This document shows positions 1,354 to 51,134 of a DNA stretch of 64,000 nt, one piece after another (the first letter of the stretch is position 1; each line of letters opens with the position of its first letter). The notes under the pieces are model-generated. The model was given only the letters and a program-made list of their open reading frames with translations. It ran no database searches and was not told where the DNA came from. The stretch is from the NCBI RefSeq assembly GCF_055900595.2, contig NZ_CM148325.1; one strand, written 5' to 3'. The position numbers and the translations under genes were made by a program.

Positions 1354-1992
1354 ATGGCTGTCGCTGCCAACAAACGTTCGGTAATGACGCTGTTTTCCGG
1401 TCCTACTGACATCTATAGCCATCAGGTCCGCATTGTGCTGGCTGAGAAAGGTGTAAGTTTCGAGATCGAACACGTGGAAAAGGACAATCCGCCTCAGGAT
1501 CTGATTGACCTCAACCCGAATCAGAGCGTTCCGACCCTGGTGGATCGTGAGCTGACCCTGTGGGAATCTCGCATCATTATGGAATATCTGGATGAGCGTT
1601 TCCCGCATCCGCCACTGATGCCTGTTTACCCGGTAGCTCGCGGTGAAAGCCGTCTGTACATGCATCGCATCGAAAAAGACTGGTACACGCTGATGAACAC
1701 CATCATCAACGGTTCAGCTTCTGAAGCAGATGCCGCACGTAAGCAACTGCGCGAAGAACTGCTGGCGATTGCGCCGGTCTTCGGTCAGAAGCCGTACTTC
1801 CTGAGCGATGAGTTCAGCCTGGTCGATTGCTACCTTGCTCCGCTGCTGTGGCGTCTGCCGCAACTGGGCATCGAGTTCAGCGGCCCGGGTGCGAAAGAGC
1901 TGAAAGGCTATATGACCCGCGTCTTTGAACGTGACTCTTTCCTTGCTTCTTTAACTGAAGCTGAACGTGAAATGCGTCTGGGCCGGAGTTAA
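1354..1992 (+). CDS. sspA: stringent starvation protein A (GST-fold RNAP-associated protein)
   Basis: 212-aa ORF MAVAANKRSVMTLFSGPTDIYSHQVRIVLAEKGV...; recognised SspA, followed 5 bp later by sspB. Confidence 0.93.
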   Translation: MAVAANKRSVMTLFSGPTDIYSHQVRIVLAEKGVSFEIEHVEKDNPPQDLIDLNPNQSVPTLVDRELTLWESRIIMEYLDERFPHPPLMPVYPVARGESRLYMHRIEKDWYTLMNTIINGSASEADAARKQLREELLAIAPVFGQKPYFLSDEFSLVDCYLAPLLWRLPQLGIEFSGPGAKELKGYMTRVFERDSFLASLTEAEREMRLGRS

Positions 1993-1997
1993 TCTGT

Positions 1998-2495
1998 ATG
2001 GATTTGTCACAGCTAACACCACGTCGTCCCTATCTGCTGCGTGCATTCTATGAGTGGTTGCTGGATAACCAGCTCACGCCGCACCTGGTGGTGGATGTGA
2101 CGCTCCCTGGCGTGCAGGTTCCTATGGAATATGCGCGTGACGGGCAAATCGTACTCAACATTGCGCCGCGTGCTGTCGGCAATCTGGAACTGGCGAATGA
2201 TGAGGTGCGCTTTAACGCGCGCTTTGGTGGCATTCCGCGTCAGGTTTCTGTGCCGCTGGCTGCCGTGCTGGCTATCTACGCCCGTGAAAATGGCGCAGGC
2301 ACGATGTTTGAACCTGAAGCTGCCTACGATGAAGATGCCAGCATCATGAATGATGAAGAGGCATCGGCAGACAACGAAACCGTTATGTCGGTTATTGATG
2401 GCGACAAGCCAGATCACGATGATGACACTCATCCTGACGATGAACCACCGCAGCCACCACGCGGTGGTCGACCGGCATTACGCGTTGTGAAGTAA
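1998..2495 (+). CDS. sspB: ClpXP specificity-enhancing adaptor SspB
   Basis: 165-aa ORF MDLSQLTPRRPYLLRAFYEWLLDNQLTPHLVVD... with acidic C-terminal tail; recognised SspB. Confidence 0.93.
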   Translation: MDLSQLTPRRPYLLRAFYEWLLDNQLTPHLVVDVTLPGVQVPMEYARDGQIVLNIAPRAVGNLELANDEVRFNARFGGIPRQVSVPLAAVLAIYARENGAGTMFEPEAAYDEDASIMNDEEASADNETVMSVIDGDKPDHDDDTHPDDEPPQPPRGGRPALRVVK

Positions 2496-2499
2496 AATG

Positions 2500-2527
2500 A
2501 AAACAGGCCCTGGCGGCCTGTTTTGTC
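2500..2527. terminator. Bidirectional hairpin terminator between convergent sspB and dcuD
   Basis: aacaggccctggcggcctgtttt hairpin with flanking A/T runs between the two stop codons. Confidence 0.6.
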
Positions 2528-2538
2528 TTCTTTATCGC

Positions 2539-3906
2539 TTAATAAAATAGCGTGATTGTGGCAATCATATTCACCACGAAACCGACTGCCATGGGGATCG
2601 CTGTCCGCTTCACCACTGCAAAAGGCGAAACACCTGCAATTCCTGATGTAACGACCACCACCGCAGTAATCGGCGAAACAGCGCGCGCTAGCGTCGTGGC
2701 AAAATGCATCGGCATAATCATTACAACCGCAGGTACATGTAGTCCGGCTGCGATATTCGGAATAAGACTGGCAAATGACATAAATGGCGCATTGCCTGAG
2801 CCCATCACAATGGCACAAATGGCAATGACCAGCGCCATAATAATCATCACGCCAATACCGCCCAGACCAGAATGCTCCGCACCCCTGATAACCGCATCGA
2901 CAGTGCCAATTGTCGTTAAGCCCTTCGCAAATATTTCACCCGCGACCACCAGCGTTACCACGTTGGCAAACTGCGTACCCATGCCGTCAAAAAACGCCTG
3001 CACATCGTCCATTGTTTCGCGCAAATTATGCTTGCGGAAAAACTCAACAAACATCGTCACCGTCAAACTCAGTAACATCACCACCACCAGATGCAGTTCT
3101 GACTGCATCAGTCCAGCGTGGGCGAGGAACAGCGAGCCGAGCATCAGGATTAACGGCATCACCGGTAAAATGGCGTAATAAAGCGGTGGGACATTATCGA
3201 GAGCTTTTTGCTCCGCCTGCTCGTGATTGATATTTTTATCTTTTTTGTCAAAAGCGCGTTGCACGAAAAAGTGAGAGATCGCTACCGAGATAATGACGCA
3301 AGAGGCGACCGGAAGCTGGTAGTGGAAGAAGTAAGTGGCAATTTTCATTCCTGCCACCTGGGCCGCAAAAATAGAGTTCGTTTCCAGAATCCCCCACTCA
3401 ATGGACATCGTGGTTGCGATAACTGCCACCGCAGAGAGTCGACTTACTCCCAGACTCACCAGTGTCGGAAATAAGGTGACCATCAGCAACATACCCAGAC
3501 CGGAGGCGCTGGTAATAAACTGCGCCATGATTTGGCCGATGACGTAAGTTGCCGACAGAATAATATACGGCGAGCGAATGAGTTTTAACGGGCGGCTTAA
3601 CAAGCTCACCATCGCCCGACTGGCTCCTATGCGCTCCATGTAGCGGGCATACCCGCCCACCGCCATAATCGACAACCCTAACCCGGCAATGCGGTTGGAC
3701 AGCATGCGCAGGATTTCATTATAAATATCGACGATCAAGTAGCCGCTGCTTTGGGTGGGATCGAGTACTCCACCGAACCCTAACCAGACACCGCACATCA
3801 TCAGGAAGATACCTGCGGCAGCCAGCACCACTTGAGGTTTGTAGTTTTTCAGGATCAAATAGCCCATCGTCATTAATACGATGACAGATATAATTATGCC
3901 GAACAT
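2539..3906 (-). CDS. dcuD: C4-dicarboxylate transporter DcuD (DcuC family)
   Basis: ORF 2539..3924 minus; polytopic membrane protein; start trimmed to [11 protein letters not shown]... (455 aa) from recall of the DcuD N-terminus; position between sspB and nanR matches E. coli. Confidence 0.85.
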
Positions 3907-4284
3907 TGTTGAACTCCGTGTCAAAAGAAAACGGTCAATCCCATAAACGGCAGATTGAAAACAGTGATGTTATATTTTTTGCAAGGCTATTTATGGTGTT
4001 GGTGTCGTATTTTTTAATTCTGGATGAGGCAATTTTTCATTATAAAATATGCATTTATGATTATTTTGTAAGAACATATTCGTAATATTCATAATGCTTG
4101 TGAATAGTCTTATGAATAATTCATTCAGGATGTTTTATCGGCGTTACACTAATTTTCGCAATAGTTAATTATTACGTTAATTATGATAATAATGAGACAC
4201 AAAGAGAAAAAACCGCCATTTCCCCCTACTTTCAATCCTGTGATAGGATGTCACTGATGATGTTAATCACACTGACCTTACAGA

Positions 4285-5076
4285 ATGGGCCTTATGAACG
4301 CATTTGATTCGCAAACCGAAGATTCTTCACCTGCAATTGGTCGCAACTTGCGTAGCCGCCCGCTGGCGCGTAAGAAACTCTCCGAAATGGTGGAAGAAGA
4401 GCTGGAACAGATGATCCGCCGCCGTGAATTTGGCGAAGGTGAACAATTACCGTCTGAACGCGAACTGATGGCGTTCTTTAACGTCGGGCGTCCTTCTGTG
4501 CGCGAAGCGCTGGCAGCGTTAAAACGCAAAGGTCTGGTGCAAATAAACAACGGCGAACGTGCCCGCGTCTCGCGTCCTTCAGCGGACACCATCATCGGCG
4601 AGCTTTCCGGCATGGCGAAAGATTTCCTTTCTCATCCTGGCGGAATTGCCCATTTCGAACAATTACGTCTGTTCTTTGAATCCAGCCTGGTGCGCTATGC
4701 GGCTGAACACGCCACCGATGAGCAAATCGATTTGCTGGCAAAAGCACTGGAAATCAACAGTCAGTCGCTTGATAACAACGCGGCATTCATTCGTTCAGAC
4801 GTTGATTTCCACCGCGTGCTGGCGGAGATCCCCGGTAACCCAATCTTCATGGCGATCCATGTTGCCCTGCTCGATTGGCTGATCGCCGCGCGCCCAACGG
4901 TAGCTGATCAGGCTCTGCATGAGCATAACAACGTTAGCTATCAACAGCATATTGCGATCGTTGACGCGATCCGTCGTCATGATCCTGACGAAGCCGATCG
5001 CGCGTTGCAATCGCATCTCAACAGCGTCTCTGCTACCTGGCACGCCTTCGGTCAGACCACCAACAAAAAGAAATAA
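4285..5076 (+). CDS. nanR: GntR/FadR-family transcriptional repressor NanR
   Basis: 263-aa ORF with N-terminal winged-HTH region (…[54 protein letters not shown]…); lies immediately upstream of the Nan operator and nan operon. Confidence 0.9.
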
Positions 5077-5139
5077 TGCCACTTTAGTGAAGCAGATCGC
5101 ATTATAAGCTTTCTGTATGGGGTGTTGCTTAATTGATCT

Positions 5140-5162
5140 GGTATAACAGGTATAAAGGTATA
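5140..5162. promoter_or_regulatory. NanR operator (three direct GGTATA repeats) within the nanA promoter region
   Basis: ggtataacaggtataaaggtata read directly; matches the established Nan box. A GATC Dam site lies just upstream (aattgatctgg). Confidence 0.7.
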
Positions 5163-5176
5163 TCGTTTATCAGACA

Positions 5177-5185
5177 AGCATCACT
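5177..5185. repeat. Left copy of the 9-bp target-site duplication (AGCATCACT) flanking IS10
   Basis: Identical 9-mer agcatcact occurs immediately outside both IS10 termini (5177..5185 and 6515..6523). Confidence 0.9.
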
Positions 5186-5230
5186 CTGATGAATCCCCTA
5201 ATGATTTTGGTAAAAATCATTAAGTTAAGG

Positions 5231-5300
5231 TGGATACACATCTTGTCATATGATCAAATGGTTTCGCCAAAAATCAATAATCAGACAACAAAATGTGCGA
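5231..5300 (-). ncRNA. IS10 RNA-OUT antisense RNA (pOUT transcript), placed from recalled element coordinates
   Basis: Established IS10 architecture: pOUT transcript of about 69 nt starts near element bp 115 and runs toward the outside end, pairing with the 5' end of the transposase mRNA. Coordinates are inferred from element position, not from a visible signal. Confidence 0.4.
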
Positions 5301-6501
5301 ACTCGATATTTTACACGACTCTCTTTACCAATTCTGCCCCGAATTACACTTAAAACGACTCAACAGCTTAACGTTGGCTTGCCACGCCTTACTTGACTGT
5401 AAAACTCTCACTCTTACCGAACTTGGCCGTAACCTGCCAACCAAAGCGAGAACAAAACATAACATCAAACGAATCGACCGATTGTTAGGTAATCGTCACC
5501 TCCACAAAGAGCGACTCGCTGTATACCGTTGGCATGCTAGCTTTATCTGTTCGGGCAATACGATGCCCATTGTACTTGTTGACTGGTCTGATATCCGTGA
5601 GCAAAAACGGCTTATGGTATTGCGAGCTTCAGTCGCACTACACGGTCGTTCTGTTACTCTTTATGAGAAAGCGTTCCCGCTTTCAGAGCAATGTTCAAAG
5701 AAAGCTCATGACCAATTTCTAGCCGACCTTGCGAGCATTCTACCGAGTAACACCACACCGCTCATTGTCAGTGATGCTGGCTTTAAAGTGCCATGGTATA
5801 AATCCGTTGAGAAGCTGGGTTGGTACTGGTTAAGTCGAGTAAGAGGAAAAGTACAATATGCAGACCTAGGAGCGGAAAACTGGAAACCTATCAGCAACTT
5901 ACATGATATGTCATCTAGTCACTCAAAGACTTTAGGCTATAAGAGGCTGACTAAAAGCAATCCAATCTCATGCCAAATTCTATTGTATAAATCTCGCTCT
6001 AAAGGCCGAAAAAATCAGCGCTCGACACGGACTCATTGTCACCACCCGTCACCTAAAATCTACTCAGCGTCGGCAAAGGAGCCATGGATTCTAGCAACTA
6101 ACTTACCTGTTGAAATTCGAACACCCAAACAACTTGTTAATATCTATTCGAAGCGAATGCAGATTGAAGAAACCTTCCGAGACTTGAAAAGTCCTGCCTA
6201 CGGACTAGGCCTACGCCATAGCCGAACGAGCAGCTCAGAGCGTTTTGATATCATGCTGCTAATCGCCCTGATGCTTCAACTAACATGTTGGCTTGCGGGC
6301 GTTCATGCTCAGAAACAAGGTTGGGACAAGCACTTCCAGGCTAACACAGTCAGAAATCGAAACGTACTCTCAACAGTTCGCTTAGGCATGGAAGTTTTGC
6401 GGCATTCTGGCTACACAATAACAAGGGAAGACTCACTCGTGGCTGCAACCCTGCTTACTCAAAATCTATTCACACATGGTTACGTTTTGGGGAAATTATG
6501 A
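5293..6501 (+). CDS. IS10 transposase (DDE, IS4 family), apparently intact
   Basis: Uninterrupted 402-aa [67 protein letters not shown]...; recognised as Tn10/IS10 transposase. Confidence 0.95.
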
Positions 6502-6514
6502 GGGGATCTCTCAG

Positions 6515-6523
6515 AGCATCACT
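6515..6523. repeat. Right copy of the 9-bp target-site duplication (AGCATCACT) flanking IS10
   Basis: agcatcact immediately after the IS10 inside end; identical to 5177..5185. Confidence 0.9.
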
Positions 6524-6535
6524 TCAGAGGTATTT

Positions 6536-7429
6536 ATGGCAACGAATTTACGTGGCGTAATGGCCGCACTCCTGACTCCTTTTGATCAACAACAAGCACT
6601 GGATAAAGCGAGTCTGCGTCGCCTGGTTCAGTTCAATATTCAGCAGGGCATCGACGGTTTATACGTGGGTGGTTCTACCGGCGAAGCCTTTGTACAAAGC
6701 CTTTCCGAGCGTGAACAGGTACTGGAAATCGTCGCCGAAGAGGCGAAAGGCAAGATTAAACTCATCGCCCACGTCGGTTGCGTCAGCACTGCTGAAAGCC
6801 AACAACTTGCGGCATCGGCTAAACGTTATGGCTTCGATGCCGTCTCCGCTGTCACGCCGTTCTACTATCCTTTCAGCTTTGAAGAACACTGCGATCACTA
6901 TCGGGCAATTATTGATTCGGCGGATGGTTTGCCGATGGTGGTGTACAACATTCCGGCGTTAAGCGGCGTTAAACTGACCCTGGATCAGATTAACACTCTG
7001 GTTAAGTTGCCTGGTGTCGGCGCGCTGAAACAGACCTCTGGCGATCTCTATCAGATGGAGCAGATCCGTCGTGAACATCCGGATCTGGTGCTCTATAACG
7101 GTTACGACGAAATCTTTGCTTCTGGTTTGTTGGCGGGCGCTGATGGTGGTATCGGCAGTACTTACAACATCATGGGCTGGCGTTATCAGGGTATCGTGAA
7201 GGCGCTGAAAGAAGGCGATATCCAGACCGCGCAGAAGCTGCAAACCGAATGTAATAAAGTCATTGATTTACTGATCAAAACGGGCGTATTCCGCGGCCTG
7301 AAAACGGTCCTGCACTATATGGATGTCGTTTCTGTGCCGCTGTGCCGCAAACCGTTTGGTCCGGTCGATGAAAAATATCTGCCAGAACTGAAGGCGCTAG
7401 CCCAGCAGTTGATGCAAGAGCGCGGGTGA
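6536..7429 (+). CDS. nanA: N-acetylneuraminate lyase
   Basis: ORF 6476..7429 trimmed to [20 protein letters not shown]... (297 aa), preceded by SD gagg; DHDPS-family lyase; first gene of the nan operon. Confidence 0.92.
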
Positions 7430-7537
7430 GTTGTTTCCCCTCGCTCGCCCCTACCGGGTGAGGGGAAATAAACGCATCTGTACCCTACAATTTTTATACC
7501 AAAGCGTGTGGGCATCGCCCACCGCGGGAGACTCACA

Positions 7538-50780: not shown

Positions 50781-50867
50781 GCCGAGGTGGTGGAATTGGT
50801 AGACACGCTACCTTGAGGTGGTAGTGCCCAATAGGGCTTACGGGTTCAAGTCCCGTCCTCGGTACCA
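50781..50867 (+). tRNA. leuU: tRNA-Leu (anticodon GAG)
   Basis: 87-nt sequence gccgaggtggtggaattggtagacacgctaccttgaggtggtag...ggttcaagtcccgtcctcggtacca with long variable arm and CCA end; 14 bp after secG; followed by a hairpin/T-run terminator (50880..50905). Confidence 0.9.
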
Positions 50868-51134
50868 AATTCCAGAAAAGAGACGCTGAAAAGCGTCTTT
50901 TTTTGTTTTATATCCCCGCATTTTATTGGCTGGATAACGAGCCCCCTCAACTCCTCTCTCTTTGCCTCCTGACTCCGCATAAATCCTTCAAAATAAGATC
51001 TGAATCACTTTTGTTTGGTAGAGCATATAAGCTAAGTGTAAACATTTTTTCAAAATGATATAGATCAGGACTTCAGTTTTTCTAATGTATAAAATCGCAC
51101 GCCGTCGATATTTACTCTGTTCTTATCTACGGGT

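Follow-up and report, generated by a model that had tools for sequence, protein, structure and literature searches.

Within the window, the 64-kb stretch of DNA analysed here, positions 3907-4284 form a 378-bp spacer with the divergent genes dcuD and nanR on either side. The gene order of the window is that of E. coli K-12 and its gene identities agree with the MG1655 annotation, in which the counterpart gap measures 379 bp (3,374,490-3,374,868) and holds no annotated feature between nanR and dcuD. The dcuD product, 99% identical over 455 aa to K-12 DcuD, is named 'putative transporter DcuD' in MG1655, and DcuD homologues carry Pfam PF03606. The genes and larger units of the locus are:

1354-1992, plus strand: sspA, from the ORF list
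1998-2495, plus strand: sspB, from the ORF list
2526..4215, no strand assigned: accessory segment of ~1.69 kb, comprising dcuD and ~310 bp of the spacer; boundaries approximate
2539..3906, minus strand: dcuD coding sequence, an intact ORF of 455 aa encoding a DcuC-family transporter
3906-3904, minus strand: ATG of dcuD, read from the sequence
3907..4284, no strand assigned: the spacer, GC 0.317
4285..5076, plus strand: nanR coding sequence; annotated start 4285, conserved start 4294

The GC content of the spacer is 31.7%, compared with 0.513 for the whole window, and no 378-bp stretch of the 64 kb lies lower. Only 0.17% of such stretches are equally AT-rich, every one of them overlapping the dcuD–nanR spacer, and the next-lowest values are 0.331-0.333. 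The sole other stretches of the window with a 378-bp GC of 0.36 or less are 18515-19035 and 50845-51410 (minima 0.333 and 0.331). AT content reaches 72% in the 260-bp core of the spacer, 3964-4223 (GC 0.277), and is 68% over the whole; the flanking dcuD and nanR coding DNA has about 47-56% GC. The AT-richness is real and no chance fluctuation. A sequence-only reading of this DNA had described a very AT-rich 378-bp gap between divergent dcuD and nanR starts; its coordinates are exact, with ATGs at 3906 and 4285, and the composition bears it out as the window minimum for stretches of this length. The same reading saw no ORF or repeat, which is essentially right, as the ORFs are short chance ones of 20-59 aa and a 12-bp tandem duplication is the sole notable repeat. 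An Rfam scan at E ≤ 1 placed no family in the spacer, its single match being the IS10 RNA-OUT outside it, and no terminator-like site lies inside.

Conservation does not extend to the nanR ATG annotated at 4285 (MGLM...), which is ATA in two Citrobacter loci. What the genera share is a start at the second ATG, 4294 (MNAFD...), and measured to it the functional gap may be 387 bp.

Presence, absence and origin of the dcuD segment

Genomes either have the whole segment 2526..4215, lying between the sspB terminator and the nanR promoter, or lack all of it. Among 5,426 complete E. coli genomes, the spacer is found in 4,327, and 1,040 (19%) carry a nearly clonal dcuD-less junction in which 107 bp, with no AT-rich DNA, separate sspB from nanR. 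The dcuD-less state is found, for example, in APEC O18 and in several UPEC strains, probably members of phylogroup B2.

Across species, one genome was surveyed for each species with NanR, giving 80 loci, and dcuD was located by tblastn. Only four Escherichia loci and about 16 Citrobacter loci have it between sspB and nanR. The dcuD-carrying Escherichia records include sp. MOD1-EC7003, sp. E1V33 and E. whittamii; three Escherichia records are dcuD-less. Most Enterobacteriaceae lack the gene at this place: sspB adjoins nanR in E. albertii, Salmonella arizonae, C. koseri, C. amalonaticus and C. sedlakii, and also in Kluyvera, Raoultella, Enterobacter, Lelliottia, Buttiauxella and others. The presence/absence polymorphism and the patchy phylogenetic distribution together mark the dcuD segment as accessory DNA. 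The dcuD-less junctions are collinear and their sequence is common across genera. The dcuD-less state looks ancestral, with ~2526-4215 as the variable piece, and the sequences would fit either one old gain followed by losses or transfer by homologous recombination. A target-site duplication flanking the segment was considered and rejected, as there is just a weak resemblance that is not kept in Citrobacter.

Outside Escherichia and Citrobacter, DcuD is patchy, and the next homologues, at 73-77% identity, come from organisms of 40-42% GC. DNA upstream of these distant dcuD homologues has no similarity to the spacer. The nearest non-enterobacterial homologues (75-77%) stand in a conserved cluster of a racemase-like gene, an M20 peptidase, a MaoC dehydratase, a second M20 peptidase, DcuD and a CoA-transferase III. 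Given this company of racemase, M20 peptidases, MaoC and CoA-transferase, the substrate of the DcuD family may not be a plain C4-dicarboxylate.

Divergence from K-12 changes sharply along the locus: pS is 0.02 in sspA and sspB, compared with 0.11 in dcuD, 0.16 in nanR and 0.195 in nanA, a step that points to a recombination boundary between sspB and dcuD. The dcuD–nanR–nanA region of the window (2539-7429) is a rare, deeply divergent haplotype, matched at 99% identity or more in only about 10-14 of the 5,426 genomes. In its two nearest relatives, 2017-02-2CC and Z0117EC0005, dcuD is annotated as a pseudogene with an internal stop; the gene is intact in the window (2539-3906).

Insertion sequences have been recorded at the locus. 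In strain WEM25 an IS1 stands 57 bp ahead of dcuD, and all DNA from that point through the nan operon to gltD is deleted. According to a preprint, IS5 inserted recurrently between nanR and dcuD in the course of laboratory evolution. The spacer was rejected as an IS hot spot, being split in 30 of 4,373 genomes against 61 of 5,425 for the control gap rpsI–sspA.

Conserved ends and variable middle of the spacer

An alignment of 17 Escherichia and Citrobacter spacers was the basis for calling blocks invariant or conserved. All promoter assignments given here are candidates drawn from sequence and conservation. The features of the spacer, from the dcuD end to the nanR end, are:

3907..3963, minus strand: dcuD-proximal 57 bp, probable 5' UTR, identical to K-12
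3914..3917, minus strand: dcuD Shine-Dalgarno GGAG, 7 nt before the ATG; ACTCC columns invariant in Escherichia and Citrobacter
3967..3979, minus strand: 13-nt block, AAAAATATAACAT on the dcuD strand, invariant in 17/17 spacers
3991..3996, minus strand: CCATAA on the dcuD strand, 5/6 positions invariant, exactly 16 nt upstream of TATAAC in both genera
4005..4014, minus strand: conserved block, AAAAATACGA on the dcuD strand, a putative UP-element-like A-tract; TC and TTTTT columns invariant
4034..4061, plus strand: promoter-like site toward nanR (TTTTCA-16 nt-TATGAT), 9/12 in the consensus scan, its TATGAT half inside a conserved TTATGAT block
4096..4215, no strand assigned: hypervariable AT-rich filler of ~120 bp, unalignable between Escherichia and Citrobacter
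4164..4187, plus strand: 12-bp tandem duplication, GTTAATTATTAC / GTTAATTATGAT, from the repeat search
4216..4284, plus strand: putative ancestral nanR promoter and 5' UTR, homologous to the DNA right after the sspB terminator in dcuD-less genomes
4239..4249, plus strand: candidate nanR extended −10 element, TGTGATAGGAT, with TG at 4241-4242 and the −10 hexamer TAGGAT at 4244-4249

The spacer differs from K-12 at 34 positions, all within the 260-bp core 3964-4223, where they amount to 13.0% divergence. This value matches the synonymous divergence of the flanking genes, indicating that the core drifts at a neutral rate. Faster-than-neutral diversification of the core, an idea taken from Higashi 2016, was rejected for the same reason. 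The segment 3907..3963 has 0 differences from K-12, where ~7 are predicted at the neutral rate of the core (P = 3.5e-4), and the last 61 bp of the spacer likewise have 0 differences (P = 2e-4). Judged from these comparisons, both spacer ends are under purifying selection.

The region upstream of dcuD that belongs to the gene itself, 3907-4095 (~190 bp), contains blocks shared by Escherichia and Citrobacter, with additional conserved islands extending to about 4095. The best −10 candidates for dcuD, TATAAC (3974..3969) and TAACAT (3972..3967), both lie in the AAAAATATAACAT block. TATAAC is passed over by the scanner because it has C, not T, at hexamer position 6. CCATAA, at the −35 position, matches TTGACA at 2 of 6 bases and is a possible activator site. 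A sigma-70 consensus scan of the dcuD strand of the spacer returned no match, consensus scans near dcuD for sigma-54, FNR, CRP, ArcA and NarL found no site, and scans of the spacer with the IHF, Lrp and Fis consensus gave nothing convincing. The three blocks shared by the two genera are placed as the −10, the −35 and the UP element or activator site of dcuD would be. They could instead be sites for a repressor or a nucleoid protein. We propose that the dcuD-side ~190 bp would be the control region of the gene itself, acquired along with dcuD and provided with a good ribosome-binding site.

At the opposite end, the TG at 4241-4242 stands one base 5' of a hexamer whose second base is A and whose sixth is T (TG-A-TAGGAT, 4241-4249). 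Of 84 enterobacterial loci, dcuD-less ones included, 70 have the pattern TGTGnTAnnAT 43-64 nt 5' of the conserved nanR ATG, and 77 have the shorter TGnTAnnAT within 130 nt upstream of nanR. TGTG-n-TA-nn-AT upstream of nanR is, at the level of sequence, the signature of an extended −10 promoter. Like sigma-70 promoters of the extended −10 (TGn) type, the TGTGATAGGAT of nanR combines TG with a TAnnAT hexamer and has no good −35. In dcuD-less genomes the conserved motif likewise follows directly on the sspB terminator, so the ancestral nanR promoter and leader would be the last ~70 bp of the spacer. This promoter appears to be independent of the AT-rich tract, as it sits ~25-30 bp past the sspB terminator in dcuD-less genomes. 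The nanR side would thus be an ancient, compact promoter in which a short leader comes after an extended −10 element.

Further sites on the nanR strand are less clear. The number of consensus promoter matches in the spacer is not above shuffle expectation. The 4034..4061 site could equally be a dcuD regulatory site on the opposite strand, and the promoter-like sites on the nanR strand within the core might be real distal nanR promoters. A weak half-site of CRP/FNR type, conserved in Escherichia only, also came out of the consensus scan, 3' of the nanR −10 at 4256-4271. The NanR operator GGTATA is absent from the spacer; it occurs three times at 5140-5162, upstream of nanA.

A complete IS10 of 1,329 bp lies between nanR and nanA in the window (5186-6514). 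Its transposase is encoded at 5293-6501 on the plus strand and Rfam matches RNA-OUT on the minus strand (5231-5300); the element is bordered at 5177-5185 and 6515-6523 by a 9-bp target duplication, AGCATCACT. With the NanR operator (5140-5162) on one side and the ribosome-binding site and ATG of nanA (6536) on the other, the insertion separates nanATEK from its promoter. The IS10 junction of the window is in no complete E. coli RefSeq genome.

Between the two conserved ends, the middle ~120 bp would be unconstrained filler that drifts neutrally and is altered by slippage. Escherichia sp. MOD1-EC7003 has a 12-bp gap at the 4164-4187 duplication, which points to gain or loss of one unit by replication slippage. 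The extreme AT content of the filler may be the product of mutation bias in unconstrained enterobacterial DNA. Spacer length is 356-396 bp and GC 0.29-0.35 in all taxa that carry dcuD, and this AT-richness could be kept by selection, for example for H-NS or Fis binding, instead of drift.

Silence of dcuD and readings of the spacer

The gene has been reported without evident expression (PMC6414658, PMC12886548), in keeping with the cryptic status that the sequence-only reading gave it. Its control region has no canonical sigma-70 promoter. With TATAAC lacking T at position 6 and only 2 of 6 TTGACA bases at the −35 position, the dcuD promoter would be intrinsically weak and dependent on an activator or a condition, and this is the most likely cause of its silence in the laboratory. 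This interpretation of the sequence fits the reported absence of dcuD expression. Overall, we consider it probable, though by no means assured, that the spacer is a composite divergent regulatory region of three parts in which dcuD is silent mostly through its weak promoter.

Two other accounts of dcuD transcription bear on this conclusion. One would have the gene driven by a sigma-54 promoter within the spacer, since a list of sigma-54-dependent promoters derived from RegulonDB includes dcuD (PMC3118216). However, TGGCACG-N4-TTGCW has no match within 3 mismatches anywhere in 3890-4300, and the ChIP-detected site assigned to dcuD is 2,253 bp upstream, in the nanA–nanT gap (PMC4591121). That K-12 site corresponds to window 7486-7502 on the minus strand, TTGGTATAAAAATTGTA, which has one mismatch and lies in the nanA–nanT gap antisense to the nan operon. 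A sigma-54 promoter in the spacer is therefore the most improbable of the readings considered here, and we give it almost no weight. The other account, which develops the H-NS silencing suggested in the sequence-only reading, holds that H-NS nucleates on the AT-rich, curved spacer and occludes the dcuD promoter, and that this xenogeneic-type silencing is the main cause of crypticity. The AT content of the spacer favours H-NS binding (68-72% AT; GC 0.317 for the 378 bp and 0.277 for the 260-bp core). It has 11 A/T-tracts of at least 4 nt, or 29 per kb against 9 per kb in the window, a density three times the window average. Its curvature as predicted by a wedge model has a minimum in the top 0.6% of positions and makes it the 8th most curved locus of the window, which may also favour H-NS. 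The same holds for the patchy, accessory distribution of dcuD and the spacer, with nearest outside homologues from organisms of 40-42% GC, and for the silence of dcuD under standard conditions. IS insertions are found at H-NS-silenced loci such as bgl, and the IS1 (WEM25) and recurrent IS5 insertions recorded at the spacer resemble these.

Several observations nevertheless argue against H-NS as the main cause. The high-affinity H-NS nucleation motif, reportedly the TCGWTWAATT of Lang et al. 2007, has no spacer site within 1 mismatch; at 2 mismatches there are two sites, 1.8 times the window background. The AT-rich tract covers merely ~260-310 bp, well short of a kilobase-scale bound tract, and dcuD itself has ~50% GC. 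H-NS regions average 1,686 bp, and short ones act as mild, transcription-factor-like repressors (Kahramanoglou et al., PMC3064808). Natural insertions split the spacer no oftener than the control gap (30/4,373 vs 61/5,425). A full-text literature search on dcuD/nanR (yhcL, yhcK, b3227) gave no H-NS report for the locus, and the locus gene names and b-numbers do not occur in the Higashi 2016 supplement. Finally, the lack of a usable dcuD promoter could already account for the silence, and H-NS is not needed for it, as the dcuD strand has no sigma-70 consensus match. Comparison with the H-NS-repressed bgl and proU gives a similar balance. The spacer resembles them in AT content, A-tracts, predicted curvature, a laboratory-silent gene, accessory DNA and IS1/IS5 insertions, but differs in its short tract, coding flanks of ~50% GC and want of a good high-affinity motif, in showing no excess of natural insertions over the control gap, and in having on its dcuD side no recognisable promoter for silencing. 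We put the chance that H-NS binds somewhere on the spacer at about even, and consider it doubtful, although a serious contender, that H-NS is the main cause of dcuD crypticity. If bound, nucleoid proteins such as H-NS would form a short patch that damps transcription and would not be the chief reason for dcuD being cryptic.

A further reading is that the spacer hides a small gene, either a small RNA or a leader peptide or small protein such as the 33-aa ORF at 4092..3991 (minus strand, upstream of dcuD and in the same direction). An ATG- or GTG-started ORF is kept at this position in Escherichia, with 20 aa in some Citrobacter, and the first 20 codons of the 33-aa ORF overlap conserved DNA blocks. 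Yet the pN of this ORF relative to K-12 is 0.08-0.12, 30-40 times that of dcuD and nanR (0.002-0.003), which indicates that it is not under protein-level selection; its pN/pS is about 0.5, from tiny counts. The ORF has no Shine-Dalgarno, its length and C-terminus vary, and in 378 bp chance would be expected to give ORFs as long as this. A 59-aa plus-strand ORF is shortened to 36 aa in K-12, and neither an Rfam family nor a terminator-like site was found in the spacer. The small spacer ORFs were rejected as genes on pN and frame breaks, and a small gene of any kind is very unlikely. A joint reading has somewhat more room, although it too is improbable: a 1.69-kb dcuD cassette with no mobility genes would be exchanged between Citrobacter and Escherichia by recombination in sspB and nanR, would be kept off by a nucleoid-protein patch together with a defective promoter, and would be turned on in a gut-specific condition by an activator binding AAAAATATAACAT and its partner blocks.

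In sum, the spacer is a divergent control region of an ordinary kind, if unusually AT-rich, with a composite history. Like ordinary divergent control regions of the Enterobacteriaceae, it has two back-to-back genes, promoter-proximal DNA under purifying selection, and less constrained AT-rich DNA between. It departs from them in an AT content that is extreme for the window, and in halves that differ in history, the nanR promoter being ancestral and the rest having come with dcuD. No condition is known in which the DcuD transporter is expressed, and the conserved blocks offer a concrete start for finding what activates its gene. Genomes that naturally carry or lack dcuD provide a comparison for the effect of the AT-tract on nanR and thus on sialic-acid regulation.
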